Shown here in pieces: positions 27,067 to 63,332 of a stretch of DNA of 64,000 nucleotides. The notes under the pieces are model-generated. The model was not told the DNA's origin. It worked only from the letters and a program-made list of their open reading frames with translations, and did not search any database. The stretch's first letter is position 1. Every line of letters starts with the position of its first letter. This stretch comes from Schmidtea polychroa (Eukaryota). The stretch covers positions 189,720,001-189,784,000 of the forward strand of contig CM097885.1 in assembly GCA_044892525.1 (NCBI GenBank), in the 5' to 3' direction. The position numbers and the translations under genes are program-made.

Positions 27067-27086
27067 AAGGTAATAATGATGATTGT

Positions 27087-39627: not shown

Positions 39628-40266
39628 CATTTAAATTCAACATTTAAAATCAGCGATACAAAAAATACCCTAAGGTTGGTAAATTGAGTAGATCTCATAC
39701 CTAAAATTCAACAAATCACACTTAGTATAGACGGTTGAGTTCCTAAAAATTGACTCTGCCCATACATTGTCGAACCTAGATAAATTTTTTGAATAAAGTA
39801 AAGAATTTTCATAATGATTTAGTTCGTAACTAAGGTTCGATAGATGTATTGGCAGGGCTTGGATTTTTCATTAAATGCAACTAGCTGAATACGAATCATA
39901 TACCTTTAGAACATAGAATCCCGTCATAATCTTATGAAGTGTCGAAGAATAGTTATAGTTGGGCTTGGATAAATTCGTCGCTGAAAATGGGAATTACCAG
40001 TAGCTGTAGATAAATGCTGTTACAGAAATAGATGGAAATTTTTATGAATTATAGATAATTAGAAACATAAGTTAAAATTGCGAAAGTACTTTATACCTAA
40101 ATATATCAATTTTGATCGTAAAAGTAGGAATTCTAAATTGTCATGGGTAAAATTTGCTTACAAAACCATAAATTACAGATCGTTACATGAAAGTTTTATT
40201 AAAATATAATAATTAGATATGAATTTTTTAGCATGAACCTCAACTGCAAAGTCAAAGTTTTAAAAC

Positions 40267-40519
40267 CCAAAATTTTAAATATAAAACATAAATTTCAACT
40301 ATAAAATATAAATTAATCCAAAATTTTAAATATAAAATATAAATTTCAACTATATAATATAAATTAATCCAAAATTTTAAATATAAAGTATGAATTTCAA
40401 CTATGAAATATAAATTAAACCAAAATGTTAAATATAAAATACAAATTTCAACTATATAATATAAATTAATCCAAAATTTTAAACATAAAGTATAAATTTC
40501 AGCTATAAAATATAAATTT
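40267..40519. repeat. Minisatellite, ~5 copies of a 51-bp AT-rich unit
   Basis: ccaaaattttaaatataaaa...ttcaactat...aattaat starts at 40267, 40318, 40369, 40420, 40471. Confidence 0.85.
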
Positions 40520-41910
40520 TGGTTATGAAAGTATTAACTTCAATCTAGAATTTTTAAATTANNNNNNNNNNNNNNNNNNNNNNNNNNNNNNNNNNNNNNN
40601 NNNNNNNNNNNNNNNNNNNNNNNNNNNNNNNNNNNNNNNNNNNNNNNNNNNNNNNNNNNNNNNNNNNNNNNNNNNNNNNNNNNNNNNNNNNNNNNNNNNN
40701 NNNNNNNNNNNNNNNNNNNNNNNNNNNNNNNNNNNNNNNNAGGATCACTCTTCCTAGCGTTATTCTTATCAACCGTATGATTATCATTATTATTATTATT
40801 GCTATTATTTCATTATTAATTTCCAAAAATCGATTGAATCATCGATTTAGGATTTCCCTCCACGACTAAATTTAGAACCTACCCCTTTGCTCCAATAAAA
40901 ATGAACGTAATTCCTAAAATCTATTTTTAGTAACCCCCCCCCCCCCCCTCTCTGAGAAAATGCTAGGACTATTAATTAAATAAGAACATAAGTAGGTGCA
41001 TATATATAGCTATATGAGTAAACGTAGGTAACTATACGTATCTAATAAGTTAATTTAACTCAGGCTTATCAGAGATGGATATCTTAGTTAACTTAGCGTC
41101 CCCAGAACTAAAAGTCAAGTAAAACCTACATTAACTCAAACCAATTCATCGAGGACACTAGGAATACATTGAGACAATCGATACCAACCATGGGACTCCA
41201 CGGAATCAGCCGCACGAATTATCAATAAATGACAAAAAATTATTTTACAAAAAATCGAAGCGATTAACAAAAGAACATGCTAAATTAAATTAGTCAACAA
41301 AACTTCTAACATTACTAGATACAAATCAGACTAAAAATACTAACACAGAGTCATATAACATTCCTTTAAGGCTTTGAACAACCGGCCACTCCATCCGAGT
41401 GAAAGATTCCCATCAAATATCTCTAAAATCGAAAAGCTATGGTTAATAAATGAACTACTTACAAGCAAATCAAAGCGGACTATACCACTCACGACGAGTA
41501 CAACCGAAGGAAAGGCAAGCAGACGAGAAGCTAAGCTCGTTGTTAATACCTGTCGCCTCAGCGTACCCGAATTTAGTGGCAAACGATTTAAACCCTGAAA
41601 TTTTAAATTCGTTATAATATTTAAATTAAAATACATAAAATATAATTTAAATGTTCACTTAGTGATAAATACAAATTTAGAGAAAAATAGTTAATTAAAA
41701 CAAGAGGATTGTTGATAAATTTTTTTTTAGTTATTAGTAGACAAAATATGAAATTTCATTCTATGGTTCCTAGGATTATAAATGTTAGTCTTAAAATAAA
41801 ATATTTCTTTTTATTTTTCAAATTCTTAAAGGGAAAAAGGGTCAACAAAATCCTGTGTTTAACGTCGTATTACAATCAGTATAAAGTGGCTTGATTGTTC
41901 TTTTGTAGAA

Positions 41911-42267
41911 ATGTCCTATTCTGACAGTGGTAGTAACGAAGCAGCCGACCGACAGATGCTTACACGACTCCGGACACGGTACATATGGTACCGTATCCAT
42001 GATTGGAACCGGGGCTTGGACCTCGACAACTGGGGCCCAGTAATCAGGAGTGGGCCGGAACCGGACGCCCCAGCGTGGGTAAAAACAGAGCCCACAAACG
42101 ATTTTTTGCAAGAGGCCCGTGACCGAGCGGCCATCGAGGTGGAAGCAGCCCAGATGCGATTGAGGAAAATCGACTTGCAAATCCGGGCAAACAAGGAAGG
42201 GAAAACCGTAGAGGACCTAGAGGAGGCCGAGACAACCCCGCGGAAGAGGGGAAGGCCTCGCAAGTGA
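41911..42267 (+). CDS. 118-aa orphan ORF with coiled coil and C-terminal AT-hook
   Basis: GC-rich island; ATG preceded by ttcttttgtag and TATAAAG at about 41880; ends TPRKRGRPRK. Confidence 0.55.
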   Translation: MSYSDSGSNEAADRQMLTRLRTRYIWYRIHDWNRGLDLDNWGPVIRSGPEPDAPAWVKTEPTNDFLQEARDRAAIEVEAAQMRLRKIDLQIRANKEGKTVEDLEEAETTPRKRGRPRK

Positions 42268-42488
42268 CCGACCTGACTCATCATCAAAAAATTTTTTTTT
42301 TGCAATTAGCATCAGTTATGACTTAATTAAACTTTAATTTTAGTGACGAACAATTTTATTCCTTTCAATAAATTATCTTATGAATTGCGTGCTTAATGTC
42401 TGAGACTATGTTTATTTATAATATTGATCTTATTATATAATAGAATGAGCGTTATGCTGCAGGAATGAATCATTGAATTTTTATCTAG

Positions 42489-42919
42489 TGTTCAAACTAC
42501 TTGAAAATTTGCGAAAGGACAGGGAAGAAGCCCAAAAACAGGCCGAGGAGCTCCGCATACGAGTAGACAAGCTCAAGGGACGGTGCCGGGAACTAGAAAG
42601 CACCTGGTTTAGTCCCGAGGATATGAAAAAGAAGGTGGCGCAGGTCCTTCAACTGCAGACTCAAGCCGCGCAGGATCAGATGGAGATCCGGGCACTGAAG
42701 CTCCAGCTCCGCGCGTTAGAAACCGAGCGAAATGAACAAGTAGTTCACGGAGCCGCCATAAGCCAAATCCGGCCGTTGACTGTGGAACTAGCAGCAATAT
42801 ACCCTTCGGCCGCGAAAGAGAAACCCAAAAGAAAGCGGTTGGGACGGAACATCCGGGAGAAGTTAAAAAAGGCTAGGTTAGCCGAGTATGAGCGACAAGA
42901 AAAATCTACACCAGTGTAA
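42489..42919 (+). CDS. Coiled-coil/basic ORF, possibly a spliced exon
   Basis: GC-rich open frame (LRIRVDKLKGRCRELE...KPKRKRLGRNIREKLKK) after acceptor-like tttttatctag at 42488; first in-frame ATG is internal. Confidence 0.4.
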
Positions 42920-43326
42920 TTTCCGCGATGTGAACAGTCACTTATGCTAGATACACTGAGTTTTCCTTTTTTTTTTGTTGTTTATTGTTAATGTCTAAAT
43001 ACAAATTTAGTTAAATTAATGTATGAAGTATGTTGTTTGCAAATGTTGAGTGACTGAAAATCGAGGCGTTGAGAGTTGGGAAAACAATTTCGAATAGGGG
43101 ACCGGAGAAAATCGGACACATACCTTCTAACGGTAGTCCGTGAACCCGTGGAGTACTCGACAATTATAGTGCTTTGATGCGCTCACTTTTTGTGGGTACT
43201 CAACCCTTGGTACAGTACCAACGTTGATCACTCAACGGGTACCAAGCGGAAAAACAATGTTGTATTTTGGGTTACGCTGGTAACAGCACTCAATCATTCA
43301 ACCACCAGTAACCCACCATACAAATT

Positions 43327-46235: not shown

Positions 46236-47216
46236 ATAAATGTAGACGCAGAGATCGCGCGAACCAAAGCATCGATGATTAAATATGAATTTGATTAAAT
46301 CGAAATAGATTAAGTGCGTTAAATATATAATGAGTAAAGGAAAATTATGATAAAGCGCCGGCGCAAGTGAAAATTAAACCAGTTTTTGGATGGGGAAAAG
46401 CGAACGAATAGATAGTAGTTGAATTATTGAATTTTATTTATTAATGATATGTTTATTTTGATACTTATGTGATTGATGTTATATTTCTATGATAATTATA
46501 AAAGGGATAGATAATTGATACGACTATATAGATAATTGATACGAGTTATAGATAATTTAAAATCAACTTAAAATCAAAATGGGGCGAATAGCGAGAAGTG
46601 TAGAAAAGCTAGAAAATTTGAAGCGAAGGGACAGTAAAATAAAGGGAAAAAGGAAAGTAAATGAAGGGTTTAGTAAAGAGAATTTATGATATGTACTAGA
46701 GGTGTTAATTATTTTAGAACAAAGCAAACAATTCAGAAAGAAATCAAAGAAATCAAGAAAGCAATAGCAATCAAGAGATATAGAGAAATCAATTAGAAGC
46801 GAAGAATCAAAGAAATTAATAAAACCAAATCCAAGAAGAGTTAGAGAATCGTAAAGATTAAAGCGAGAAAAATACTTAGAAAACATCGAGCTCGATTGAT
46901 AAAGTAGAAAATTTATCAAAGGATATTAAAAGGAGAAAAAATTGATAGCATAGCTAACCGAACGAGGCGAAAAAGTAAAGGAAACCTCAGTTTATTGGAA
47001 AAGGAAGAGATACAAAAGGCCAAGACCAACAGAAAACTACACAGGAAGCCAGCATCAGTAGAAACAGTATTTGAATCAGACAGTTTAACAAACGAATTTG
47101 AGAACAGCGACGATCTTAAACGAACCGAACTAGATCCGATAAGTGACATTGAATCATCAGACGAGGAAGGAAATAGTTCAGAGTCAACCAATATAACAAT
47201 TTTGTGTCAAGAAATA

Positions 47217-50200
47217 ATGACAGACGGAATTCCAAATGTAACAGGGCTAACGGACCCACCGGAAACAAGTAATGTGCACGTCAACATTGGAGAATTCAGA
47301 GAGAAATTTCGAGGAGAGCCATTCGATGGAAATATAAACCAGCTGGAAACGTTTATAAAGGAATTCGAAGTATACATTACGATATGTCACTGGCCAGATA
47401 TAGTCGTACGAGAACGAATACCCCTATATCTAAAGGGAAGCGCCCAAGATGTATACTTGGAGGCGAAATGTGATGCAACAAAGTTGAGAACGTGGAAAGA
47501 GATCAAGGAGTTTTTAATAAAAACATTCGGTACCGAAAAAGAGGGAAATCGAAAAATGTTAGACTTTCTGCATCGAAAGCAGAAATATAACGAATCCAAC
47601 GCACTGTACGCATGCGAATTGAGACGACTAGCACGAGAAGCCTTCGATTCAAATCAACCAGTTCCGGAAGACAAAATAATAGCCGTATTCGTAGATGGCA
47701 TGAAACGAGAGGATATACGAGCAACCTTGGGATGCCGAGCACCAGAGACGCTGGAAGAAGCACTAAAAATCGCTAACAAATGTGAAACCTACTTAACACC
47801 AATACAAGTAGCAGCAATGACAGCAGCTCCAGCAGCTCCAGCGGCAACAGCAACAACCACAAACAACCAAGTCAATAATGCAAATCCAGTAATGAATCAA
47901 TTCATCCCAGGATCGCAACAGTTGTTCAAAACCCCACAAACGAGGAACCAAGACAATGGAGGTAATATTCAAAATTTTACTAATAATTTCAGGAACAACG
48001 ACAATCGAACGTGCAACATATGCCAACGATCAGGGCATTGGAGCAATGAATGTTATAGAGCAAGGATGTGTCAAAAGTGTGGGAGAAGAGGCCACACGGA
48101 AAACATCTGCAGAGTTCCCACGATGTCTACGGGCAGAGGAGGAACTAGAACCTGCTACAATTGTAACCAGCCTGGACACATGGTTAGAGAATGCACGATG
48201 AGAGCCAAACCAAATCAACCAGGATCAAACAACCCAATTCAGAACACGAAAATCAACCTCATGCAGGAAATCGAACAATTAAAAGATATGATCCAACGAA
48301 TACCGGTTAATAATCAACAACAACGAATCAACATGATGCAGAGCACCGAGGAAATCCGGAAGCAACCAAGTAAGCAACAACAAGATCAACAACGAATCGA
48401 ATGGCAAAGATTGCAAAACGAAGAAGCCAGAGAAATTCAAGAAAGATGGAAACAACGGGAAGCGAATCCCGGAAGAATAAATATGATGAGGTTAACAAAT
48501 AAAGAGGAATCGCACACTGCGGAGCAGTGTGTTAACAACGAAGGGAGTGATCTGATAAAAACGACGAAAGAAAATGAGATTGATCCACAGACAAAATTGA
48601 GCAGCGAAGAGAAAATACAATTGATTAAAGAATTTACCAAAGAGGAGAAAGAAAGGAGACAAAAGAAAGATGAGAGCCAAGACGAATCAAAAAGCAATGA
48701 GATAGTTACAAAAAATCGAATTCAGAGGGTACTACTACAAAAAATCGAAGACAGAATCAAAAACGAAAACCCTACATTAACTAAGGAACAAATCAAAGAA
48801 AAAGTGAAAGAGCATTGGTTCAGGAAAAATGAGTGGTTCGAAAAGAAAGAACCACATACCAAAGCTAAAATAAACATGTTGAGACAAATGCGGAGTGATC
48901 AGACGGATCAGGAAGATGAGAAAAGTGAGGTGAGTAGCCTGGGAGGCGAATTATTTCAGTCAAGTGAGGAAAACAACGAACCGAAAACACCTCCAAACAG
49001 TGAAACACCTCAAAGTAGTGATAGGAGTGAAAATGATGACATGAAATCAATGATAGAAAAAGATGATGAGGAGATATTTGAGGAAATTTTCGACACAGTA
49101 ACAGAAATAGAGCGGAATGAGAGCTACATCAACGAGCTAACATATAGAAAATGCGTAAAACTTATAACTCAAGTATACCAGTGTGAAGGAGGTATAATAA
49201 CGGCAGCATGGAAAGATTTAGCAACAAGATATAAAGAGAAACTAAAGGAAGCAGGCCCAGATCAATATCAGGTAAGTATTCAACACCCCGAGATTCAGAT
49301 ACAGACTATTGAATTAAAAGGAACAAATACCGATGAACTGTACAACTGGGTACAGGAAAAAATGGGAACGAGCCATAAAAATAAACAATTATATGTCGAT
49401 GGTTACAAAGTTAAAAGGGGCATACATTTGGTAGATGCGATGATATGGCCCAACGAAACTAACATCTTAACCTTAGAGAAAACCAGAGACGACGAATCAG
49501 TGGCAGAAATGTTCCAGAAAATCCAACAAGTGTTTAACAATGAAGTGGAACCAGAATTGGAAAAGATCGAACGAAAAATAATGAAAGAAAACCAAATAAT
49601 CTTGGTTAAACAAGCTATCGATCAGGCAAGAAAATATATTAATAGACTGAGAGAAAGATGGCCACAACTAATGAAACAATTTGTCAAAGACGTACGAGAC
49701 ACAGAAATTATGAGATTCGAAGACGAACGAGCGACAGAATTGATATCTAAATACGGAGAATACGAGAGAACCAAATGCGAACGAGAAACGATAAAAATAA
49801 AGGTGAAGTTGCCAAATGAAGAGAAACAAATAATAGAAGTTGACCCCGATTGCCAAGTTGACGAGTTAGTGCAAATCATAGATCAAGAGATCATCCAAAA
49901 AGCTCGAGAAAATAGTGAGGATGGAATGATCGAAGATGTGATAATAATGTACAACCGACATATGTTAGAAAGAGGAGACCGAACTGTAATTTACGAACTA
50001 GGAATCTGGGAAGATGGAGCCGTCATCAATATAATCGCGATGGATGAGCCATCGGGTGGACACAAAAACGCCACCAAAACAGAGCAACAAATTAAAAGAT
50101 TCCAATGGGGGATGAGAGTAAAGATGGATCGAATAATAGATATTTATAACCATTGGCTAAAGGATGATAAACTAAAAGTAGCAGCCTTCAATGACGAAGA

Positions 50201-53200
50201 TTGCAAACTGATACCATGGAAAAAAGTGTGGATCGAAAGGGAAGCTCGATGGGATTGGGAGCAGCAAAAGTTGGAACCAAATTGGATAGATAATATACCT
50301 GAGGAGATCGCAGCAGTATGGGTAAGAGAGAAACCAATCGATGCTTACCAGGATATATTACCACAAGAATTCCAAAATGAGTTACAATCAGGAGAAGATG
50401 AGGAGATACGAGAACCGGTAAGGTTAGCACCATTCACGTGGAAAATTGAGAATTGGATGGAAAAGATAAAATCAGCAAGGGAAGAGAAAATCACACGATT
50501 AGTAAGTCCACCGTTCTACTCAGGATTAGGTGAGTACAAGATGAAATTGCGAATATACCCGAACGGAGATGGGGTAGGAAAAGGAAGTTATGTGTCGGCA
50601 TTCTTCATCATCTGCAAAGGGAATTATGACGATAAGGTACCAGGGCCGTTTAGCAGAAAGGTAACGATAGCGATCGAACCACTGAAAGATAGCCTTAACA
50701 TACATAAAGAAACAATGAAACCAGACCCAAGGAGCACATGCTACCAACGACCAACAACATCAGAAAATACCGCTTCTGGGACGTCTAAATTAATACGTCT
50801 AAATTACATTGAGAATGAACAATCAATATTTGTGAAAGACAATGCTATCCAGATAAGAGTAGAAGTTGAAACAGAGCAAGAAATGAACCAACGACTGAAC
50901 ATACCAGAAAATCAACCGAGAATCTGTATGATGAGGAGAAGAGTGCCTGATTCAGGATATCTACCAATAGACGCCGACGCAGATGAGGAGGAAGCAGCAA
51001 CATTGTTGGAAGCACAAAAATGTAAGGAATTGATGGAGATATTACAAAACGGGGCGAAAAATCGTCGACGAGCGGTAGTAGAACTACCAAAATGGATAGC
51101 CGAATCATGCAAAAGGATTCAAAACCTACGAAAAATCGTTAAAGCGATTGAAGAATATCGACGGGTATACGTATGGTACCCTGAACAATTTGGTGAAATC
51201 ATTCGGAAATGGAAACAACAAGAGTGGGCCGAAAACTTACCTGAGAAATATCAACTAAAAATATTCTTGCCAGATTTTGAACCAATGGAAAAGGAATTCT
51301 ACTCAACAGCCAAGGTCAGGGAAGTTAAAAAGAGAATACCTTATGAACTCCCATTCCACTTACAACACGAGGGACGATCATTAGACGACGATATCGAAAT
51401 TGGTGTGACACCACTCCAAGGAGAAATTGTGAACAGATTAACGGTGAGTAAAATTACAGGGAGAGAATTAAGAAGAAGAGAAATAAAGCAAAAATCATCT
51501 ACACAACAACCAGGAAGTTTAGACACACCAGAAGTTCCAAATGCGGTTAGTGAAGTAACGATCGAAACAACGGGAGAAGACGAAATACTAGACGAATTAC
51601 AAGAGATAGTAGAAACAGGCGAGATAATGAGAGCATCGCAATCAGGAGATCTATTCATCGACGAAGGTGAACCAACAACTGATGATCTAGATGGATTTGT
51701 TTGTGCGCAAAGACAACCAGTGGAAACGACAGAAGCCGAGACGGATTTAGATAAGGTGGGGGGAAGTGCCAATAAAGATGTAACCACAACCGATGAATGG
51801 AGTAACTGGAGAGTAGATCCAGGAGCGACCACGTCAAAAGATACAACTTACAATCCGCCAAAACGGAAAGAAACCGGAACGGCTATGGATCGACGAACAA
51901 GAGGAAGACCAAAAACAGATAAAGCAGAGGTGGAACCAAAATCCAAAATGCAAGCACAAATGGAACAGGTAAAAACTAAAATGGATAAACTAAGCGCATT
52001 AGTAAAACAAGTCAAAGTGAAAACAAACGTCCGGGAACAAGGGACACGATGGATAAACGACTTATTAGCTAACATGTTAGCGTTAGCAAATCCAGATGTG
52101 AAAAGAGTAATGAGGAAGGATAATATTCCGACCGAAGCCAAACAATTATGGGCGGTATTGAAACCGATAATAATGAAAATCATGGATAATAAAATTCGAT
52201 TAACGTTAAAGGATCCCGTGGAACTCAGATTAATTGTGGAACATCTGTTAAGCAGATCAGAAGACCAAAATCGATATTTAGTGGGATTAGCGTATTTGGT
52301 GTATAACGTCATTGGTCAATATAAAAAACGAATGCCAAAATATAACGCAACTGGTTATGAATTCACAGTAACAGAAATAATCAAACAATCAATAGAACCA
52401 TATATACTTGAACAAGGGGGATGGAGAAACTTCATCGAATCAACTGGGAAGAAAGATCAAACGGAGATGATGCAAGCAAAGTTACGCGATTTGCTAACGG
52501 AATTCGAAGGAACAATCAATATGAACGACCCAAGAGCAAGCCGAAAGGGAATAAATGCCATAATAACCACGATATTGATATGGATGATGTGCATCAAAGG
52601 AACGGAGTCATTTGCAGTATACGACTGCGACAACATAAAAATCCATGAGAAATATTCATTAAAGGATACGGAAGACTGTAAAGCGGCAAACCCAAGAAAA
52701 TTACAAACAGTCATGGCATCAGTCTCGTATAACGTATATCAAGAAGCAGATTTCATCAAAACCATGGTCCAAGAATGTACGGTAACCAGAAAGATATTTG
52801 CACATCACTGCGGTTCATCCTCCCACTCAACAATCATAGAACCGGGATTGGAATCGACAGTAATATTACTATCAAGAGAGGAATGCGAGGAAGGATTCCG
52901 ATCAGGGAGAATCCACTTAAGGCAAGGGATTGAAATTGCTGCAGAACCAGGAAAAATAAAAACGACTCGCGTGTATACGGCGGGCAGAATCACTAAAGGA
53001 GATGGAACATGTGAGACAGGAACGTACACCTTGAACGGACAACTGGTTAGTGGAGTGGTCGTGATAGAAAGCTACGAAGCTAAATTAGAAAGGTATCAAG
53101 GTTATTTCGACCCTGACACGCAAGCAATGAAGAAATACCCAAGTTGTCTCGCATCAGATCGATCATGTTCAACCGGAATGTCAACTCTGGTATACCATGC

Positions 53201-55667
53201 GGATCAGAAGGTATGTCGACTAATGTTGCTCAAAACAGCAATATTCGAAGAAATCCAAGCGAAAGTATACAGTGAACCAAAAGGAGAAGCAGAAAAACGA
53301 GCGATGGAAGAGTTGAGAGCAAGGAAAGGATTCAGAGAAGACGTAATAACCTCGAAATTGGAATCGGAAGTAACACCCACAGCGATAATCTCCAAAGACG
53401 ATGGAATAGGAATGAGGTTCATAAAGAACAAAATGGTGAGTAAATGCGATGAGATGGTGATCAGCACCAATTATAAAGGGATCTACTTGTCGCGGAGAAC
53501 CCTAGCAAATGCAGTCGGAAGACTAAGCGAAAAGGATGTCAAACTATATTTATACGCTAATAATAAGATGGATTTCTTATATCACAGAGGATTAACATCC
53601 ACGGAAAAAGTCTACCATGATCTGTTAAGAAACGATTGCCTGCTCAACAAAGAAATACTGAGAACCAAATTAGCAATGGCGATTACAAATCCAGATAACG
53701 CAATTCCGCTACTACCATTACAGGAAGGATATTTCGGACGAATCGTGGGTGAAGTGATGTACACCTACCAATGCAAAAAGATAATGGCAAGATTGCCAGA
53801 AAACCCTACAATACCAAGAGATAAGTGTGCAAACGAACTCGAAATTATTCACGAAGGTAAACCCAGGTTTGTGCAAGCAGTCACTAGGGTAATGAACCCG
53901 GTAGGGTTTCAACCAAACCTGTTTAATTGTAGTAATGCATATGGACCAATGTATGAAAAAGAAGATGGACAATGGGTTCAATTCCCAAGTAAAACAATCG
54001 TAGTAACACCCAAGAAATTTGGATTGACGGAACTAACAACAGAACTAGAGTTCAAGCCGATAGACGTATCCCAGAGTGGATTATATACACCAAAAGATCT
54101 CGAATCAGCAAGAGCCCACCTGTTATTCCCAGCGCAAAGACAAGCAATCTTATCAAATATAGTGACTATTTCTGGAGGAAATAATTATGGGGAGAGCCCG
54201 AACTACGAGCTATTATTATCACCAAGTCACTACCAACAAGCAACAGCAAACATGATGAAGGCTATGTGGGGTAGATTTTTAGTATTTGGCCAAATGATGG
54301 CAGGAATACTCGGAATTATTCTGATAATACAAATAGTTAGAGTGATACTAACTCAGATGCTAGCATGTTTTGACATCTATAAGCGCGAGAGAAAAGTAAA
54401 TTGGAAACTTGCAATTGGATTCTTACCGTTCTTAGCGAAAACAATGGTGTTACATGGACACTCAAAGGATATTCATCGAATAAAAAGATTGTTGAAAATA
54501 TTAACGCAAATGAAAGGGACAGACGAAGAAGTCGGACGTAAGTTCAAAGTGATAATGAGATTAGAAGCAGAAAGAACTCAAGAGAAAGCGAAAGGAACCG
54601 GGAAGTGGAAAAAGTGGATGAATCTCAGACGAGACGATGATAGTGATGACAATGATGATTTCGACGACGACGATAATAATCAAGGAGGGGTAACGTTGAT
54701 AAACAAAAATACAGCCACTTGGGAAAACGAAAAAATGAAACCATGGGGATCACCATATTTACAGGCACCAACTAATGGACCAATGCGACGACCAGGAACA
54801 ATGAGAGAACGGGTAAGAATGGGAACCGGGAGATTACCCGTACCAAATATTTACCCAACGGCGTATGAACCAAATTGGGCAGCAATGGACCCAACAATGA
54901 TCAAGCCAATTAAAAATGTGGGGCAAGAGGTGGAGACACGAACGATTGCGGTATTGCAGACACCAGCAGGACCATCGTTAACTATCACGGTCGAAGTAAA
55001 CGGAATAGAGATGGATGCAATGATTGATACCGGAGCAAATATCTCAGCAATAAATATGAATATGCTACCAGGAAGACTATGGCCATGCATTGAGGAGACA
55101 ACCATGGATGTAATAACATGCAGCAAACAATCCATAGCGGTAGTAGGAAGAGTATGGTCAACGATCGAATACAAAGGGGTTAAAGTTACAACGTACCTCG
55201 CAGTCATCAGACAGCTAAGCGTATCATGTATAATTGGAACAGATGTAATGCCGGAATTATTGAAAGAAATTGTGATTGATTTGAGTTCCATGAAATTAAA
55301 AGATAAAACTGGACAGATATGCACAATGAGAACAGAAGTGAGATGCTCCGAAAAAATGATAATACCAGCACGTACCCAGACAATATGTTATGTCAAGGTC
55401 GATAACGAAGCCAAAGGAGATATGATATTTGAACCAAGTCAAAAATTCGAGAAGAGAAGGGAGCTGCCATTGGCAAGAGAAATTGTCAGTATAAATGAGG
55501 ATAACGAGATACCCATCAACATCACCAATTTTGATGAGGAAGATAAAGTAATCTACGAAAACGAGAGACTTGGAAAACTCACACCAATGATGAACATTGA
55601 GCTGCCGGAGATAAAAAGCGAGGGAGCAGACGAAAAAGAATTATGGACCATCGATAGCGAACTCTAA
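47217..55667 (+). CDS. gag: Giant polyprotein part 1: Gag (3 CCHC), 2 ubiquitin-like, MATH, Bcl-2-like, fusion glycoprotein, aspartic protease
   Basis: First ATG 47217 (track start 46995 is TTG); FDGNINQLETF gag; knuckles 48012-48197; MATH 50427-50873; YILEQGGWRNF at 52401-52433; YDC/HCGxxSH glycoprotein 52548-54450; MIDTGANIS at about 55026. Confidence 0.92.
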   Translation: MTDGIPNVTGLTDPPETSNVHVNIGEFREKFRGEPFDGNINQLETFIKEFEVYITICHWPDIVVRERIPLYLKGSAQDVYLEAKCDATKLRTWKEIKEFLIKTFGTEKEGNRKMLDFLHRKQKYNESNALYACELRRLAREAFDSNQPVPEDKIIAVFVDGMKREDIRATLGCRAPETLEEALKIANKCETYLTPIQVAAMTAAPAAPAATATTTNNQVNNANPVMNQFIPGSQQLFKTPQTRNQDNGGNIQNFTNNFRNNDNRTCNICQRSGHWSNECYRARMCQKCGRRGHTENICRVPTMSTGRGGTRTCYNCNQPGHMVRECTMRAKPNQPGSNNPIQNTKINLMQEIEQLKDMIQRIPVNNQQQRINMMQSTEEIRKQPSKQQQDQQRIEWQRLQNEEAREIQERWKQREANPGRINMMRLTNKEESHTAEQCVNNEGSDLIKTTKENEIDPQTKLSSEEKIQLIKEFTKEEKERRQKKDESQDESKSNEIVTKNRIQRVLLQKIEDRIKNENPTLTKEQIKEKVKEHWFRKNEWFEKKEPHTKAKINMLRQMRSDQTDQEDEKSEVSSLGGELFQSSEENNEPKTPPNSETPQSSDRSENDDMKSMIEKDDEEIFEEIFDTVTEIERNESYINELTYRKCVKLITQVYQCEGGIITAAWKDLATRYKEKLKEAGPDQYQVSIQHPEIQIQTIELKGTNTDELYNWVQEKMGTSHKNKQLYVDGYKVKRGIHLVDAMIWPNETNILTLEKTRDDESVAEMFQKIQQVFNNEVEPELEKIERKIMKENQIILVKQAIDQARKYINRLRERWPQLMKQFVKDVRDTEIMRFEDERATELISKYGEYERTKCERETIKIKVKLPNEEKQIIEVDPDCQVDELVQIIDQEIIQKARENSEDGMIEDVIIMYNRHMLERGDRTVIYELGIWEDGAVINIIAMDEPSGGHKNATKTEQQIKRFQWGMRVKMDRIIDIYNHWLKDDKLKVAAFNDEDCKLIPWKKVWIEREARWDWEQQKLEPNWIDNIPEEIAAVWVREKPIDAYQDILPQEFQNELQSGEDEEIREPVRLAPFTWKIENWMEKIKSAREEKITRLVSPPFYSGLGEYKMKLRIYPNGDGVGKGSYVSAFFIICKGNYDDKVPGPFSRKVTIAIEPLKDSLNIHKETMKPDPRSTCYQRPTTSENTASGTSKLIRLNYIENEQSIFVKDNAIQIRVEVETEQEMNQRLNIPENQPRICMMRRRVPDSGYLPIDADADEEEAATLLEAQKCKELMEILQNGAKNRRRAVVELPKWIAESCKRIQNLRKIVKAIEEYRRVYVWYPEQFGEIIRKWKQQEWAENLPEKYQLKIFLPDFEPMEKEFYSTAKVREVKKRIPYELPFHLQHEGRSLDDDIEIGVTPLQGEIVNRLTVSKITGRELRRREIKQKSSTQQPGSLDTPEVPNAVSEVTIETTGEDEILDELQEIVETGEIMRASQSGDLFIDEGEPTTDDLDGFVCAQRQPVETTEAETDLDKVGGSANKDVTTTDEWSNWRVDPGATTSKDTTYNPPKRKETGTAMDRRTRGRPKTDKAEVEPKSKMQAQMEQVKTKMDKLSALVKQVKVKTNVREQGTRWINDLLANMLALANPDVKRVMRKDNIPTEAKQLWAVLKPIIMKIMDNKIRLTLKDPVELRLIVEHLLSRSEDQNRYLVGLAYLVYNVIGQYKKRMPKYNATGYEFTVTEIIKQSIEPYILEQGGWRNFIESTGKKDQTEMMQAKLRDLLTEFEGTINMNDPRASRKGINAIITTILIWMMCIKGTESFAVYDCDNIKIHEKYSLKDTEDCKAANPRKLQTVMASVSYNVYQEADFIKTMVQECTVTRKIFAHHCGSSSHSTIIEPGLESTVILLSREECEEGFRSGRIHLRQGIEIAAEPGKIKTTRVYTAGRITKGDGTCETGTYTLNGQLVSGVVVIESYEAKLERYQGYFDPDTQAMKKYPSCLASDRSCSTGMSTLVYHADQKVCRLMLLKTAIFEEIQAKVYSEPKGEAEKRAMEELRARKGFREDVITSKLESEVTPTAIISKDDGIGMRFIKNKMVSKCDEMVISTNYKGIYLSRRTLANAVGRLSEKDVKLYLYANNKMDFLYHRGLTSTEKVYHDLLRNDCLLNKEILRTKLAMAITNPDNAIPLLPLQEGYFGRIVGEVMYTYQCKKIMARLPENPTIPRDKCANELEIIHEGKPRFVQAVTRVMNPVGFQPNLFNCSNAYGPMYEKEDGQWVQFPSKTIVVTPKKFGLTELTTELEFKPIDVSQSGLYTPKDLESARAHLLFPAQRQAILSNIVTISGGNNYGESPNYELLLSPSHYQQATANMMKAMWGRFLVFGQMMAGILGIILIIQIVRVILTQMLACFDIYKRERKVNWKLAIGFLPFLAKTMVLHGHSKDIHRIKRLLKILTQMKGTDEEVGRKFKVIMRLEAERTQEKAKGTGKWKKWMNLRRDDDSDDNDDFDDDDNNQGGVTLINKNTATWENEKMKPWGSPYLQAPTNGPMRRPGTMRERVRMGTGRLPVPNIYPTAYEPNWAAMDPTMIKPIKNVGQEVETRTIAVLQTPAGPSLTITVEVNGIEMDAMIDTGANISAINMNMLPGRLWPCIEETTMDVITCSKQSIAVVGRVWSTIEYKGVKVTTYLAVIRQLSVSCIIGTDVMPELLKEIVIDLSSMKLKDKTGQICTMRTEVRCSEKMIIPARTQTICYVKVDNEAKGDMIFEPSQKFEKRRELPLAREIVSINEDNEIPINITNFDEEDKVIYENERLGKLTPMMNIELPEIKSEGADEKELWTIDSEL

Positions 55668-58600
55668 ATGAAGATGAAAAGGAACAACTCAGACAACTAC
55701 TGATTGAGTTTAAAGATATTTTTGCGGCTTCAGATTTGGATCTGGGTACTAGCGATGTAACTCAACACATTATACCATTAACAGATGAGACACCCATAAC
55801 CTTGAGACCATATCGATTGGCTGAAGCACAAAAAACGGTAGCAGAGGAAGAAGTACAAAAGATGTTAGATGCTGGTGTAATAGAACCTAGTTGCTCACCA
55901 TGGCAATTCCCAGTAGTAATGGTCAAAAAGAAAGATGGCACACAGAGATTTTGTATTGACTATCGGAGGTTGAATGCAGTAACTAAAAGGGATACGTACC
56001 CACTGCCAGACATAAACGAAATGTTACAGATGTTGCATGGAGCAGCATACTTTACATCTTTAGATCTAAAGAGTGGATACTGGCAAATTAAAGTTAAAGA
56101 GGAAGATAGAGAAAAGACAGCCTTTACCATCGGAAAAGATTTATATCAGTTTAAAAAGATGCCATTTGGATTAACAAACGCACCTGCTTCGTTTCAGAGA
56201 TGTATGAACTTTGTGACACACGGGATCAAACAATGTATGGTGTATATTGATGATCTGTTAATTTATTCAGGTACTTTCGAGCAACACTTAATCGACATCA
56301 GAAACATATTCATAAGACTGAAACAATGGAAGCTGAAGTTGAAACCGTCAAAATGCGATTGGGCAAAGGAGAGAGTCACATTTTTAGGACACATTGTGTC
56401 GGCAAAAGGAAAAGAACCAGATCCGAGAAACGTTGAGAAAATAAAGAATTGTCCGATACCAAAAACCGTGACTCAGGTGCAAGAATTTCTGGGATTATGC
56501 GGTTACTACCGCAAGTTCATCAAAAATTATGCAACTATCGCAAAACCAATTCAGGAACTAACAAAAAAGGATACTCCATTTCTGTGGGAAAGGGAACAGC
56601 AAATAGCGTTCGAATCGCTAAGAGATAAATTAATAGCCTCGCCTATCTTAATCCACCCAGATTTCAAAAAGCCTTTTTTATTAGCAACTGATGCAAGTGG
56701 ATACGCATCAGGAGCTGTGCTAGGACAATGGGATGAGGAGAAAAGAGAAAGAGTCATCGGATATTATAGCAAGACGTTCAAAAAGCACGAAAAGAATTAC
56801 TCAGTCACAGAAAGAGAAGCTTTAGCAATAATTCAGGCGATAAAACATTTCAAATATTTATTATGGGGGCACGAGATAATTATTACTACGGATCACCAAC
56901 CTCTAGTTTGGTTGGGCCAACATAAAGAAGCATCTAGCCGATTAATGAGATGGGCAATGCAATTACAGGAATATTCCCCATATATCAAGTTCAAGTCAGG
57001 AAAAGCAAACGCAAATGCAGATTGCATGTCGAGATTCGTATTTGAAGAACTCATGGATCATGACGTCAGGCGAATATGCATGATAATCGCGGAAGATATC
57101 GATTTTACCAATCTAAGGAACGAACAAAAGGAAGACAGCGAATTGAAACTAATAATCGAATTCCTGGATAAAAACGATATGAAAATATTCAACAACGAGG
57201 ATCGATTGAAAGAACATATGGAGAAAAATCGTCACAGATATACAATCGAGAAAGAATGGCTATTGGTAATGGATGGCGACAAACGACTGATGTGTCTACC
57301 AGAAAGTAGACGGAAAGAAATTATGATTCAATACCACGACGGTAAATTGGGCGGACATATGTCAGCCAAGAAAACAGAAGCAAGGCTCAAACAGAAATAT
57401 TACTGGCCAAATATGAGCGATGACGTGAAAGAATGGATTAAGAACTGCTTGATATGCGCAACCAGAAAAACAACGGGCAGTAAACTAAAGCCGCCATTGA
57501 AACCAATGCCGATACCGCCAGAACCGATGACAATGATTGCAATGGATGTAGTTGGACCACTACCAGAGACTAACAGTGGAAATGTGTATATATTGGTAAT
57601 AACTGATTATCTGACTAAGTTCCCTGAAGCATTTGCGATGCCAGACCAAAAAGCACGAACGGTTGCAAGGATATTAGTGGAAGAGATCTGCTGCAGATAT
57701 GGAACACCAAAACAAATCTTAACTGACCAAGGAACTAATTTCATGAGCGAGATAATAAATGAAGTGACAAATTATTTTAGAATTGCCAAATTGAGAACCT
57801 CACCATACCACCCGCAAACGAATGGTCAGACAGAAAGATTTAACGGCATACTAATAGACATGATGTCCAATTACGTGAGTAAACATCAAAAGGACTGGGA
57901 TGAATATATTAAGTTGTGTCTAATGGCTTATCGAATGTCAATACACTCAGCAACGAAAATGAGTCCGTTTAAACTCATGTATGGAAGGGAATGCAACATG
58001 CCGATGGATCTCGAATACCAACCGCCAATCTCACAATATATGGAAATAGATGATTATGTGACCAAGTTCAAGGAGAGAATGCAAGAAATATGGAAAACCG
58101 CAGGGATGAACATCCGATTCAACCAAGAGAGTTATAAGGAATTACATGATAAAAAGAAGAACGTGCAAAACCATCAATTTAAAGTCGGAGATTGGGTTAT
58201 TATAGAAACACCCGAATTAATCCCAGGAACAGCAAAGAAATTACAACGTAATGGCAGAGGGCCATATGAAATCATCCATGTAAACGAGAACAACGCTAGA
58301 GTGAAGTTGGTTAACAATCCACTAATTAGACCCATTTATGTGAATACATGTCGATGCAAAGCAGTAGCGAAAACTGCCACTAAAGACCCAGAAACAAGGA
58401 GGATAATTACGAGATCACAAACAAATGCCACAACGGAACCAGAAGTAAGCGGTAGATTAACTAGATCACAGACAAGACGGATATTCATGTTGAGAGGAGA
58501 AACAAGCAGCAGCGCCCATAAAGGAACTGAAGCAGAAAGCGAAGCTGACGCAATGGCAAGGAGCCAAGCAACATGGAATATGACAGTAAAAATAGCACGA

Positions 58601-61243
58601 GAAATTGTACCAGAATGGGCCGATATAACCAATAAATACCAAGTATTGGGCAAACTAATGTTAGTAGCAGAAAGATATGCGAAAGGACGAAGATATGCCG
58701 AAGGATTACAAATACCGACTCAAATATATGAACTAATCCGGAGATTACCAATCATGTTCCTAACAAGTGATTTGAGTAATAACTGGCCAATCCATCATGC
58801 AGTGAAAGCAGGACAAGAAAAACGAGCTTTAGAGATTATACGAATAATGGAAAACTGCAAACAATCAACAAACGTCAAAAACAGTAAAGGAAAAACTCCA
58901 CTGATGAAAGCCATAGCAATAGGCGCATCAAGAGATGTACTCAGAGAATTATTAAGAACGGGATCCACGTTGAAAGAAAAAGACAACAAACAACGAACCG
59001 TATTACGTTATGCCGTCAGGTCAAAAAGACCTAGTATAGTGAACTTTATCACAGGAAATGCAACAACCGAAGAAGCCGAGGTGTTGGGACAGAGCATTGA
59101 ACCAATTCTGGAAGCCATCAGAGGAAACTTAGACAGAACCGCAGCAATGTTAATCAAATGGAAACAAAACGAATTAAGAGCGGAAGTAATTGATATAAAT
59201 CAATTCCAAAACAACGAAAATATCGTACTAAGAAGCGCCATATACTCAAGACCACCAATGCCAAAAACCATTAAAGCAATATTACAAAGAAATAGAGCAG
59301 AATTGACAGGTAATTGGTGGAAATGCACAAAAGCACATACGATGAAAAAGCAACTAGAAATACTAGTGTGGGAATGGCACCGAAAACAACGGAAATATCA
59401 AGGAACCAAAGAAGAACGAGAAAGTATCCACAATGATAAAAAAGAGATAATTAAAAAATACGAAGAGATGATCAAAGCGACAAATGTCGAGGACGACATT
59501 TTTGGGAAAACCCCGGGTGAGAGGAATGACGACGATGACGACGACGAAAGGATGGGGGATAACGATAACAACCCAGAGGAAAACGACAGAGAACAAAATC
59601 CGGAGGGCGGAGAAACAACGGATGATGATGAGGAGTTGGAAGAAGACGAAGATGACCAATGTCGAGGTGAAGATCAAGGATTCGACAAAACAGAAAACAA
59701 AAAACGAAAGTCCCCACTACATAGCATAGTGTTTCGAAATCAAATCCAGCCAATCCTACTACAAAGAATATTTATAATATTAACATCTATCTGCTTAACG
59801 GAAACAAAAAATATGAGAATCGTAAGAGAAGCTTTCCAAGAAGGCGAAGTATTTATGATAAAAGTCAGTGATTACGACGGTAACGCCGTCGGAATATGTG
59901 TGCAACTAATGGAAGGAACAGGAGTAAGTTGTGATTTCAGATCGATAACAAAAGGAAAGATCTTTAGTAGCCAAAAAAGAGACCCCAGGCTATGCGGAGA
60001 TTATGACATCTGTAGGGACATAACAACAGAGGAAATGGAACTAGAAAGAGCCAATGAAACCGGAGTACATTTTCAACTTAACATTCTGGAAGAAGGTATC
60101 GAAATAGAGGATAAAGGGAGTCGATCAATTACACATGTATGCATCAGAGAAGACAGAGATATATGCATAGTAACTGATATGACACAGGATCACAAATTCT
60201 TCTGGGGAGAGGTCAAACCAAATACCCCTACTGTGGTATGCGCAGGAACACAAGGGATAGTAGTGTGTAAAGGAACAAGAACTGCACCAAGAAAAGACAA
60301 ACCAAGGAGTATGGCAATTAAACAAGGTCCATTGACGGAGAAAACAACCAAGAAGCCCAAGAAATCAGTTAGTACAAAAACAACAACAGAGCTAAATCGA
60401 AGCGAATTAATAACAACAACAACATGGATTAACGAAGTAATTAAAGACGAAAGACGGGAAGTGCAGATAACTATTAACCTCAACAAGAAAGGTGAAGAGG
60501 TAATTACAGTCAAAAACCAAGAAGGAGAACCAATCATAAGGATATGTGTAATGGATAAGACGGGAATAATCGACTGTACAACAACACCGATAGACAAAGG
60601 TACAGACGTTAAAATGGAGACAGGGAAACGGAAAGAACGATACCAAGTATGTATCCTTAAGAAAGGAAGAGGAGCCAGCGTATGTCAACCAATAACTCGA
60701 CAAAAACCCCAATTAATAAACATACCGTGGATACCCCGAGATCAGGAAGGGGGAGAGAAACGGGAAAATCACAGTCACCTAACAGAAAAAGAGAAGGAAC
60801 GATTACATCAAGCATTCAAGAAAATCAAAGCACCAGAAACAAACACCACAGGTAGTACAATATTAACGACAGTAAAAACAAATAATGGAACAACGATAAT
60901 CACAAAGATGATATGGATAACTAGCGCGATAGTAAGCACGATAATAGCGTTAGCAATGATTCAGTGGATAAGAACCACCAAAAGATGTAAACAAAAACCG
61001 GGAAACCGAAGAAAATGGCCCAAAGTGGAAAAATTTGAATACGGTATTCCAACCGAGAATCTGAATCTAGAAGAATACGAGGTGGTAGAGGACCCCGGAT
61101 CCAGTGGATTGTGGATGTCGGAACTACCAAGAATACCCACACCCAACGAATGGACACACGAAGTCGATATATACCGATTAACGGACGAAAGATATGGGGG
61201 GATGCGCACGTTGCATTCCGGCCCCATGGCGACACTGGTATAA
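55658..61243 (+). CDS. pol: Giant polyprotein part 2: RT, RNase H, integrase, ankyrin repeats, acidic tract, signal peptide/ectodomain/TM
   Basis: Frame open from 55658; YIDD 56243-56254; LATDASG; HDGKLGGH...CLIC; MDVVGP, TDQG, NGQTER; ANK GKTPLMKAI 58778-59160; TM MIWITSAIVSTIIALAMIQWI about 60907-60970. Confidence 0.92.
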   Translation, partial: RTLNEDEKEQLRQLLIEFKDIFAASDLDLGTSDVTQHIIPLTDETPITLRPYRLAEAQKTVAEEEVQKMLDAGVIEPSCSPWQFPVVMVKKKDGTQRFCIDYRRLNAVTKRDTYPLPDINEMLQMLHGAAYFTSLDLKSGYWQIKVKEEDREKTAFTIGKDLYQFKKMPFGLTNAPASFQRCMNFVTHGIKQCMVYIDDLLIYSGTFEQHLIDIRNIFIRLKQWKLKLKPSKCDWAKERVTFLGHIVSAKGKEPDPRNVEKIKNCPIPKTVTQVQEFLGLCGYYRKFIKNYATIAKPIQELTKKDTPFLWEREQQIAFESLRDKLIASPILIHPDFKKPFLLATDASGYASGAVLGQWDEEKRERVIGYYSKTFKKHEKNYSVTEREALAIIQAIKHFKYLLWGHEIIITTDHQPLVWLGQHKEASSRLMRWAMQLQEYSPYIKFKSGKANANADCMSRFVFEELMDHDVRRICMIIAEDIDFTNLRNEQKEDSELKLIIEFLDKNDMKIFNNEDRLKEHMEKNRHRYTIEKEWLLVMDGDKRLMCLPESRRKEIMIQYHDGKLGGHMSAKKTEARLKQKYYWPNMSDDVKEWIKNCLICATRKTTGSKLKPPLKPMPIPPEPMTMIAMDVVGPLPETNSGNVYILVITDYLTKFPEAFAMPDQKARTVARILVEEICCRYGTPKQILTDQGTNFMSEIINEVTNYFRIAKLRTSPYHPQTNGQTERFNGILIDMMSNYVSKHQKDWDEYIKLCLMAYRMSIHSATKMSPFKLMYGRECNMPMDLEYQPPISQYMEIDDYVTKFKERMQEIWKTAGMNIRFNQESYKELHDKKKNVQNHQFKVGDWVIIETPELIPGTAKKLQRNGRGPYEIIHVNENNARVKLVNNPLIRPIYVNTCRCKAVAKTATKDPETRRIITRSQTNATTEPEVSGRLTRSQTRRIFMLRGETSSSAHKGTEAESEADAMARSQATWNMTVKIAREIVPEWADITNKYQVLGKLMLVAERYAKGRRYAEGLQIPTQIYELIRRLPIMFLTSDLSNNWPIHHAVKAGQEKRALEIIRIMENCKQSTNVKNSKGKTPLMKAIAIGASRDVLRELLRTGSTLKEKDNKQRTVLRYAVRSKRPSIVNFITGNATTEEAEVLGQSIEPILEAIRGNLDRTAAMLIKWKQNELRAEVIDINQFQNNENIVLRSAIYSRPPMPKTIKAILQRNRAELTGNWWKCTKAHTMKKQLEILVWEWHRKQRKYQGTKEERESIHNDKKEIIKKYEEMIKATNVEDDIFGKTPGERNDDDDDDERMGDNDNNPEENDREQNPEGGETTDDDEELEEDEDDQCRGEDQGFDKTENKKRKSPLHSIVFRNQIQPILLQRIFIILTSICLTETKNMRIVREAFQEGEVFMIKVSDYDGNAVGICVQLMEGTGVSCDFRSITKGKIFSSQKRDPRLCGDYDICRDITTEEMELERANETGVHFQLNILEEGIEIEDKGSRSITHVCIREDRDICIVTDMTQDHKFFWGEVKPNTPTVVCAGTQGIVVCKGTRTAPRKDKPRSMAIKQGPLTEKTTKKPKKSVSTKTTTELNRSELITTTTWINEVIKDERREVQITINLNKKGEEVITVKNQEGEPIIRICVMDKTGIIDCTTTPIDKGTDVKMETGKRKERYQVCILKKGRGASVCQPITRQKPQLINIPWIPRDQEGGEKRENHSHLTEKEKERLHQAFKKIKAPETNTTGSTILTTVKTNNGTTIITKMIWITSAIVSTIIALAMIQWIRTTKRCKQKPGNRRKWPKVEKFEYGIPTENLNLEEYEVVEDPGSSGLWMSELPRIPTPNEWTHEVDIYRLTDERYGGMRTLHSGPMATLV

Positions 61244-61819: not shown

Positions 61820-61908
61820 GAGAGAAAGGAGTGAAATGTAAATAATCCTGTAAATAAATAGAGTTATAATCAAGTAGAAATCCCAAGATTAAAAATCATC
61901 ATTGTAGA

Positions 61909-63332
61909 ATGCAAAACAAAGCGGAAGAGAACCGGAGAGAAGCAGAGGAACAAAAGATTAACTATGAATTGATGAGAAAATATCAAGCCAAGCCGGACGA
62001 GTTCGAAGAGAGGCTATTATGTGCCGATGCAGCATGTAGAAGACTACTGATTGGAGCAAGTCAAACTCGATGCGGGTGTAGATTATGCCGAGGGTGTGAT
62101 ATAAGATTAGCCAAGCTAAAGAGAGAAACTTGTCCAGGATGTGGAGAAGCATTTAAGTTGGTTCCCACTGGTACAATACCGGATAGAGCAATGAACCGAG
62201 AAATCAGAGAAGTGAAAATAAGATGCACCCAAAGGTCATGCGAATGGACAGGTCGAGTAAAGGAGTTAAGAGCCCATACAGACGTATGCGAATATTTAGA
62301 ATTGGAATGCGAAGCATGCACGGTAAAGTTTTTACGAAAAGAGAAAACCAAACATAAAGGGGAATGCGAAGCGCGAACGGAAAAATGCGAATTTTGCGGA
62401 GAAACTGCTAATTGGAGAGAAATCGAAATGGAACATCGAAACGCAGTAGAAAGACGGATTTGCGACGAATATACAGGGAGATGCCCAAACGAGTGTGGAG
62501 AAATTAACAACGTCAGTTAAATGAACATTGGGAGATATGCACGAGAAAAGCAATAAAATACCCAATGGTGACATTCGACTGTAGAGCACAATTACCAGCA
62601 GAAGAAATGAAGAAGCATGTGGAGGAGAACACATTCGAACACATGCAAAAGATGATGAGAGCAATAGAGTTAACAGCAAGAGCAATTGAAGACGTCAAAG
62701 ACGAACTCAAATCACATAAAATCATGATAAAAGAAATGCTGAGCTCACAGGAAAGCTTCGAAAATACGAGAGAAGCCGTAACACAAAGGATGTTGAAATT
62801 AGACGACAAATTAGTCGAAGTAACTAAATTACAAACCAAATGGACTACAAAGGAACTGACAACAGAGGAACTACCAATACTACCATACATGTGGAAAATC
62901 CAAGGAATAACGGAAATAATGGAGCGAGCAAAGCAAGGAATCCAGACAACGATAGTGAGCAAACCATTCTACGCCAAGAAACATGGATACAAGATGAAAT
63001 TGAGATGGTTTCCAAATGGAGAGGGAAAGTTTAAAGATCGGTGCGTGTCCATATATATGCAAATTTGTAAAGGAGATTTTGACGACCTAATAGCATGGCC
63101 ATTCCGACATAGATTAAAAATATCTCTCTTAGGATCAAAAAAGACACATATAATGTGCTGTCGAGCATCCAGTCCAGCATGGAATAAACCGATTACAGAG
63201 GTTAATCCTGCGGTAGGAGTAGCAGAGTTTATGCAGCTATACCAATTTAATGAAGGGTCCTACATAGAAAAGGATACTATATTCTTCCTAATCGAACTAG
63301 ACGAGGAAGGACCAACAATAGAAATACGATAG
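61909..63332 (+). CDS. Intronless full-length TRAF-like protein (RING, TRAF zinc fingers, coiled coil, MATH), split by a 1-nt frameshift near 62506
   Basis: C-x4-C-x11-CGC-x2-C-x2-C...CPGC; CPNECGEI continues in the -1 frame as QRQLNEHWEIC...MKKHVEEN; MATH WKIQG...FYAKKHGYKMKLRWFPNG...KGDFDDLIAWPF; ~474 aa if repaired. Confidence 0.88.

Follow-up and report, generated by a model that had tools for sequence, protein, structure and literature searches.

A predicted divergent viral-type Bcl-2 fold ahead of the glycoprotein signal in a giant planarian Gypsy element: a candidate survival factor, possibly held at the ER

Among described systems, the closest to the locus reported here are the Burro elements of Schmidtea mediterranea, i.e. 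Burro1/GYPSM1 and Burro-2 to -4. According to the available text of their description, these exceed 30 kb, with LTRs, an internal region of ~25 kb and an ORF of ~4.8k aa, and encode three CCHC knuckles, MATH, BIR, ankyrin and a BCL2-like motif, with an env that matches mononegavirus fusion glycoproteins in frame between BCL2 and protease (PMC6431247). The succession of BCL2-like motif and env was described there by Arkhipova and Yushenova (2019), who credit Grohme (2018), and the core observation of the present work is therefore already published: the domain and its position have been known since 2018–2019 at the level of domain architecture. The same account proposes that Burro interferes with apoptosis and ubiquitination in its host, and calls for experimental confirmation (PMC6431247). 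In smedwi-2(RNAi) animals, BURRO1 RNA reportedly increases, going by the accessible text of PMC8532177. Literature searches, which had subscription papers, Repbase Reports and Grohme 2018 outside their scope, yielded this paper as the only one treating the Burro BCL2-env region and no functional test, fold test or signal/anchor model; section 7 of the paper, in its available text, neither tests the fold nor analyses BH1, and it presents no model of a signal or anchor (PMC6431247).

DNA viruses provide another point of comparison. FPV039 of fowlpox virus, A179L of ASFV, BHRF1 of EBV, KSHV Bcl-2, ORFV125 of orf virus and vaccinia N1 have in common with the domain described below the predicted fold and a degenerate BH1, and in both cases the protein is likely host-derived survival cargo. 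The viral Bcl-2s are separate genes, whereas here we deal with a polyprotein domain of a reverse-transcribing element which, unlike them, has no tail anchor of its own save the glycoprotein signal. Anakin elements belong to BEL/Pao, and we know of no Bcl-2 cargo in them. They are likewise retroelements with a captured Jingchuvirales/Monjiviricetes glycoprotein but occur in mosquitoes, as the accessible parts of two reports state (PMC7642597, PMC10084718). A review of viral Bcl-2 in dsDNA viruses contains neither 'retrovirus' nor 'retrotransposon' in its available text, which reflects its scope only (PMC11209288).

Here, we describe the Bcl-2-like domain and the adjoining glycoprotein signal in a stretch of 64,000 nucleotides of Schmidtea polychroa (contig CM097885.1, positions 189,720,001 to 189,784,000; hereafter the window). 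The fold support and the anchor model are modest additions to what was known.

A giant Gypsy element of likely Burro type

The domain is part of a Gypsy LTR element of ~35.1 kb, with an internal region of ~25.3 kb and LTRs of 4.8–4.9 kb that have TG...CA termini and are 99.65% and 96.6% identical in two blocks. A 4-bp ATAT is present at both flanks of the 35.1-kb element. Its main features are:

38475..43318, + strand: 5′ LTR, 4.8 kb, TG...CA ends, from LTR comparison
46908..55667, + strand: polyprotein, first frame, 2919 aa, from ORF and Pfam analysis
50433-50867, + strand: MATH domain of the polyprotein
~54984-55259, + strand: protease
55658..61243, + strand: second frame of the window copy, with RT, RNase H, integrase and ankyrin repeats
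61870..64000, + strand: accessory ORFs, namely a Cys-rich zinc-finger ORF, a MATH (TRAF-like) ORF and then a BIR ORF
L061:1-651: RING ORF just past the window end
L061:4662-9564: 3′ LTR, beyond the window

The first frame encodes, in this order, Gag with three CCHC knuckles, a ubiquitin-like part (weak match), MATH, the Bcl-2-like domain, the glycoprotein and the protease. Many other copies have a single open frame of 4791 aa (stop to stop), and the window copy therefore appears broken near 55660. Across the 781-Mb genome, there are 733 candidates for the Bcl-2-like domain; all of the 150 that were scored are 97–100% identical, and 148 of these lack an internal stop.

Size, long LTRs, the order Gag(3xCCHC)-MATH-BCL2-env-PR-RT-RH-IN-ankyrin and the presence of BIR all agree with Burro, including the in-frame env between BCL2 and protease. 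The element is thus likely of the Burro1/GYPSM1 type, the family name being taken from the match to the published description rather than from a sequence comparison. Judged by the available text of PMC6431247, there are also differences: the ORF has 4,873 aa in the paper versus mostly 4,791 aa in the copies here, and the Ubi2/SUMO-like motif of Burro lies between MATH and BCL-2 whereas the sole (weak) ubiquitin-like match here precedes MATH. For the dUTPase-like part that HHpred placed between protease and RT in Burro, Pfam gave no dUTPase match at E≤1 here.

Several further features accompany the element. Another RING ORF lies between the 5′ LTR and gag (44042-44524), and ahead of the 3′ LTR (L061:731-4305) are coiled-coil ORFs together with one ORF that starts in a signal-like manner and has a hydrophobic segment close to its end. 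The LTR contains two short ORFs (41911-42919; L061:8108-9164), one of which ends in an AT-hook-like KRGRPRK, and the 5′ LTR carries 51-bp tandem repeats at 40244-40538. Past the integrase and ankyrin repeats, at 59744-60961, the polyprotein has another signal-like segment, followed by a region with Cys residues and by a transmembrane helix; these may form a second membrane protein, one without a convincing Pfam match. Elsewhere in the window, there is an ordinary, separate Gypsy element at 25879-30280, with Gag, protease/RT and RNase H/integrase each in a frame of its own, as well as an EF-hand ORF (1028-2062), a Serinc ORF (16085-16879) and an RT/RNase H fragment (13910-14401).

The Bcl-2-like domain and its sister families

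An earlier sequence-only reading of the window had proposed Bcl-2-like motifs and a hydrophobic segment in frame within the polyprotein, and both are found there, in the 2919-aa ORF at 46908-55667. Its borders for the domain, 51975..52440, which correspond to residues ~1690-1845 of that ORF, hold only in part: the domain itself is upheld, but 51975 takes in part of the preceding helix, and the modelled core covers 52023-52454.

51891..51914, + strand: AT-hook-like basic motif RRTRGRPK, upstream of the domain, also in family B
52023..52454, + strand: Bcl-2-fold domain, modelled core, 144 aa, polyprotein residues ~1706-1849
52263..52298, + strand: BH1-equivalent DQNRYLVGLAYL, start of helix 5, from the alignment with host Bcl-2 genes
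52401..52433, + strand: BH2 motif YILEQGGWRNF

The BH2 named by that reading is present, is identical in all 30 copies compared and fits the pattern W-x5-G-W as YILEQGGW, the first Trp being replaced by Tyr. The BH1-equivalent is identical in 29/30 copies. In the alignment with host Bcl-2 genes, DQNR falls in the register of NWGR and retains the Arg only, which bears out the proposal that NWGR is replaced here as in divergent viral Bcl-2s. A BH3 motif (L-x3-G/A-D) is absent from helix 2 when this alignment is inspected by eye, which therefore also argues against an effector of the Bak/Bax type.

On its own, the window domain finds few relatives. Pfam returned no family at E≤1, phmmer against the PDB aligned only the BH2, to Bcl-xL, at E≥1.3, and the ESM Atlas gave no usable match. 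The sole match among 1.84 billion representatives, an ankyrin-repeat protein, was rejected as spurious, having arisen via a repeated GW-x-x-F word. Homologue searches of a protein library with the window domain returned 0 of 1178 and 0 of 3819 candidates, and hence no relative was obtained outside this genome. Because the domain alone had no Pfam match and only BH2-level PDB matches, sister families were gathered from the same genome: B via the Pfam Bcl-2 model, C and D via the glycoprotein model and E via D, with the window family as A.

In all five families, a helical domain ending in [WY][IV]xxxGGW directly precedes signal and glycoprotein. The four sister counterparts are 18–25% identical to the window domain and have Trp at the first position of BH2, and the GGW is invariant in all 14 rows of the five-family alignment. 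Two family B copies score 28.8 and 31.7 bits against the PF00452 gathering cut-off of 31.4, which one of them passes. At BH1, family A has DQNR, B has NRDK and C–E have DRDV or DKEV-like sequences; Trp and Gly are thus gone in 5/5 families, while the Arg is kept in A and replaced by Lys in B and Val in C–E. At least five Gag-Bcl2-signal-glycoprotein-PR-Pol families occur in the genome (L063-L070, L073-L088), with commonest long frames of 4791, ~3053, 3334, ~3419 and 3437 aa; the available text of PMC6431247 names four Burro families.

Profiles built from these relatives recognise the window domain. A profile of families B–D alone gives it 21.5 bits versus 11.2 for the best of 2000 shuffles, and one of eight host or multicopy Bcl-2 genes gives 14.2 versus 10.0 for the best shuffle; neither ranked the domain among its top matches within the whole 2919-aa ORF. 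Profile-profile comparison with the same eight genes reaches a probability of 95.4 (E 1.7e-8; 79.6 for the window sequence alone), and the 14-row profile matches 214 PDB sequences at E≤10, of which the 60 listed are all Bcl-2 or Bcl-xL (best E 1.1e-5). This evidence carries a bias, in that family B was retrieved with a Bcl-2 model and the rows were trimmed around the GGW pattern. By these sequence comparisons, the resemblance to Bcl-2 exceeds chance.

The structure prediction that the sequence-only reading had suggested as its check, by AlphaFold and Foldseek, returned a Bcl-2 fold. From an input of 14 retroelement rows and zero cellular Bcl-2 sequences, AlphaFold2 modelled 52023-52454 with moderate confidence (pLDDT 70.9, pTM 0.71); the model from the single sequence had a pLDDT of 43.5 and no Foldseek match. 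In a Foldseek search of the PDB with the 14-row model, 44 of the 44 rows listed are Bcl-2-family proteins (TM 0.51–0.67; best E 1.4e-3, none at E≤0.001); when viral models were searched, viral Bcl-2 proteins led the named rows. VIA, run against 48,161 chains, gave Bcl-2 folds in its top 32 rows, led by Bfl-1 (Z 13.3, rmsd 2.9, 139/144 residues aligned), with A179L at 12.7 and BHRF1 at 12.4; the best-placed unrelated row scores Z 7.2, with 68 residues aligned, although helical bundles can score high Z through arrangement alone. Cellular, ASFV and herpesvirus pro-survival proteins (Z 11–13.3) rank above the poxvirus proteins A52 (9.5), A46 (8.5) and B14 (7.3).

The sister-family profiles and a model made without cellular Bcl-2 sequences thus agree, as the earlier claim of a divergent Bcl-2 fold had anticipated, and on this evidence the window domain almost certainly has that fold. 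It is classed from sequence and model as a divergent viral-type Bcl-2-fold domain, not as a canonical PF00452 member. With the cellular pro-survival family (Bfl-1/A1, Mcl-1, Bcl-xL, Bcl-2; PF00452), which supplies the best profile and fold matches, it shares BH2 and the arrangement of helices 4–8, but it lacks NWGR and the BH3 motif, is only 9–16% identical in structural alignments and falls below the Pfam cut-off.

The domain has diverged faster than the glycoprotein (18–25% versus 35–37% identity to the other families). In a tree of 16 Bcl-2-like rows, the nine retroelement rows lie on one side (90/89, not starred), and the window domain sits at the end of a very long branch. A single capture may be compatible with this tree, which points to no particular donor. 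In the set of the 30 closest copies (the window copy and 29 others), pN/pS for shared variants is 0.10 in the domain (11 synonymous, 4 non-synonymous) and 0.05–0.15 in neighbouring parts of the ORF, with small counts throughout; as the domain is not below its neighbours, selection is not specific to it.

Other Bcl-2-like genes were noted in the genome. A host Bcl-xL-like gene with NWGR is present in seven near-identical copies (L031-L037, ~89.9–90.8 Mb), and Bok-like host genes (L039-L041) are present as well. Two multicopy short Bcl-2-like genes (L046-L060), one intronless with 152 aa and one apparently spliced, resemble host gene L042 more closely than they resemble the Burro domain. As for the AT-hook-like motif, families A and B have an RGRP motif followed by a helix 159–178 residues ahead of the BH2 end, whereas D and E have a basic patch at 140 residues; the AT_hook Pfam match in family B is weak (E 0.77).

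Glycoprotein signal, linker and membrane topology

Behind the domain, a linker leads into a hydrophobic segment and the glycoprotein:

52455..52547, + strand: linker and basic n-region, with three weak protease-site candidates
52548..52610, + strand: glycoprotein signal peptide, internal to the polyprotein, with cleavage predicted after 52610, from anatomy and homology
52611..54383, + strand: Monjiviricetes-type fusion glycoprotein (env), PF24664 E 1.4e-68
~54294-54350, + strand: glycoprotein transmembrane helix, from hydropathy

The segment at 52548-52610 reads GINAIITTILIWMMCI-KGTES and is directly followed by FAVYDC of the glycoprotein. The PF24664 match begins inside it, at profile position 3 (52557), as it begins within the segment in 4/4 families tested (profile positions 3–6; position 7 in family B). 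Profile position 1, assumed to be the viral start Met, would map to 52551, where 26/30 copies have a Met. All five families show a basic n-region, an uncharged run of 14–26 residues, small or polar residues at -3/-1, three residues and then YDC. Given this alignment and the n/h/c anatomy in five families, the segment most likely arrived with the glycoprotein as signal peptide; in keeping with the earlier suggestion, it is very probably the glycoprotein's own cleavable signal, as predicted from sequence.

The second use once suggested for the segment, as a Bcl-2 tail anchor, is possible, and the targeting it implies is to the ER rather than to mitochondria. That it holds the domain lastingly is plausible but somewhat doubtful. 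The uncharged run of the window segment has 16 residues and lies 41 residues past BH2, with a KD15 of 2.21 and no 19-residue window that reaches KD 1.6. Several features count against an anchor: families A and B have only a short segment, the linker does contain protease-site candidates, albeit weak ones, and the Met at the segment start would permit separate production of the glycoprotein. Linkers range from 20 to 48 residues across families; family C has no Met at the segment start and a 20-residue linker, close to normal tail-anchor spacing. Contigs of four sequencing runs over 50500-54500 showed no splice joint into the glycoprotein, although contigs cannot exclude one.

Whether the domain would be released depends on the element's protease. 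A motif of the [RK]I[NCF]M[ML] type recurs at domain borders between 46908 and 61243 and likely marks protease sites. Left out one at a time, six of the 11 training sites of the border motif score 11–18, one scores 6.7 and four score below 3 (lowest -8.5). Three 10-residue windows in the linker, starting at 52452, 52506 and 52542, score 1.6–2.7 and rank 27, 33 and 41 of 4760 positions (top 1%); in families B–E, the linkers do not contain even the relaxed motif. A good border-motif match, QATANMMKAM (54237), is situated directly ahead of the glycoprotein transmembrane helix on the predicted lumenal side, and a weaker hydrophobic stretch is found at ~54408.

A precedent for such a topology is the anchored capsid of flaviviruses and hepaciviruses, where a cytosolic protein stays tethered to the ER through the internal signal peptide of the glycoprotein that follows it, until a protease releases it. 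The analogy is one of topology only, with no homology, and the releasing cut is hypothetical here.

A proposed survival factor and its alternatives

On balance, we favour the view that the divergent Bcl-2-fold domain serves as a viral-type survival factor, likely held at the ER by the predicted signal peptide of the glycoprotein. In the polyprotein, Gag, MATH and the Bcl-2 domain share a reading frame with the glycoprotein, and these three would be synthesised in the cytosol. The internal signal would send the glycoprotein into the ER lumen and its transmembrane helix would return protease and Pol to the cytosol, two crossings that would leave the Gag-to-Bcl-2 and protease-to-Pol parts cytosolic, provided that the stretch at ~54408 does not cross. 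Signal peptidase is predicted to cut after TES, which would leave the signal as a C-terminal anchor of the upstream product, comparable to the flavivirus capsid. The element's protease might trim this product N-terminally (weak candidate site at 51690), and a linker cut may or may not follow; the duration of the ER tether would depend on the latter. With its kept BH1 Arg, the groove could then bind pro-death BH3 helices of the host and block apoptosis in the element-producing cell, alongside the IAP-like (BIR, RING) and TRAF-like cargo of the element.

A pro-survival role by itself we consider slightly the better guess. Retention is indicated by the constant position of the domain in five families despite glycoproteins that are only 35–83% identical. 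The loss of BH1 Trp and Gly in all five families and of the Arg in B–E, as read from the alignment, counts against it. The available portions of three sources bear on this loss: known complexes show the BH1 Arg paired with the BH3 Asp (PMC7719400), vaccinia N1 is reported to be anti-apoptotic and to bind pro-apoptotic proteins yet has no NWGR (PMC2885619), and Bcl-xL G138A, altered at the equivalent BH1 Gly, is impaired in Bax binding but keeps BAD binding (bioRxiv 10.64898/2026.06.23.733989). A bolder version is speculative and rather unlikely: Burro-type elements would be enveloped planarian viruses whose captured signal peptide has a double duty, first translocating a chuvirus-like fusogen and afterwards tail-anchoring a captured, NWGR-less Bcl-2 that protects the producing cell, maybe riding in the particle envelope into the next cell.

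Alternatively, the fold might have a non-apoptotic job. Poxvirus A52, B14 and A46 are Bcl-2 folds that damp innate immune or ubiquitin signalling, and the domain could be a protein-binding module acting likewise with the TRAF-like, IAP-like and ankyrin cargo, which we regard as unlikely but worth keeping in mind. Such a module would fit the loss of NWG everywhere and of the Arg in C–E, a helix 2 without the L-x3-GD BH3 motif, the MATH, BIR, RING and ankyrin parts on the same element and the appearance of A52, A46 and B14 among the fold matches. However, the GGW of BH2 is invariant, both sequence and fold matches prefer BH3-binding pro-survival proteins over these three poxvirus proteins, and viral proteins without NWGR can remain anti-apoptotic, to go by the accessible text of PMC2885619.

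A little less probable again is a pro-survival or regulatory domain that is not anchored at all, with a segment that is signal only and a domain that is freed at the linker, or a glycoprotein made from its own Met, leaving a soluble or nuclear protein with an AT-hook-like motif. The homology of the segment to the start of the viral glycoprotein model, the Met in 26/30 copies, the linker protease candidates, weak as they are, the variable linker length and the RGRP motif upstream in families A and B are all consistent with this. Nevertheless, no linker site is strong (1.6–2.7 as against 11–18 for the six strongest border sites), the relaxed motif is missing from the B–E linkers, and family C, with no Met at the segment start, has a linker close to tail-anchor spacing.

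It is improbable that the captured fold is merely structural, i.e. a matrix-like, membrane-binding spacer that joins Gag to the glycoprotein in particle assembly and exerts no host control. Its position between Gag and env is fixed in five families while the MATH and ankyrin cargo vary, with no MATH match in the scanned stretch of family B, and functional BH1 residues are not conserved; but BH2 is kept, and the BIR, RING and TRAF-like genes on the same element speak for a role in controlling cell death. Finally, a chance likeness, i.e. a helical spacer that happens to contain GGW, is already largely refuted and has next to no probability left: the missing Pfam, Atlas and protein-library matches for the window domain alone and the high Z that bundles reach by arrangement would suit it, but the profiles agree with the fold search on Bcl-2, across the entire domain, at Z 13.3 with 139 residues aligned versus Z 7.2 with 68.

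The present analysis turns a published suggestion into a testable one by supplying the borders of the domain, support for its fold, BH1 variants that occur naturally (Arg, Lys or Val, in five families) and a membrane model. Under the bolder version above, a working anti-apoptotic Bcl-2 would exist in a reverse-transcribing element, would have been kept in at least five families and could shift the balance of cell survival in an animal whose regeneration starts from stem cells. If the domain works, hundreds of young copies carry a cell-death inhibitor in a regeneration model animal.
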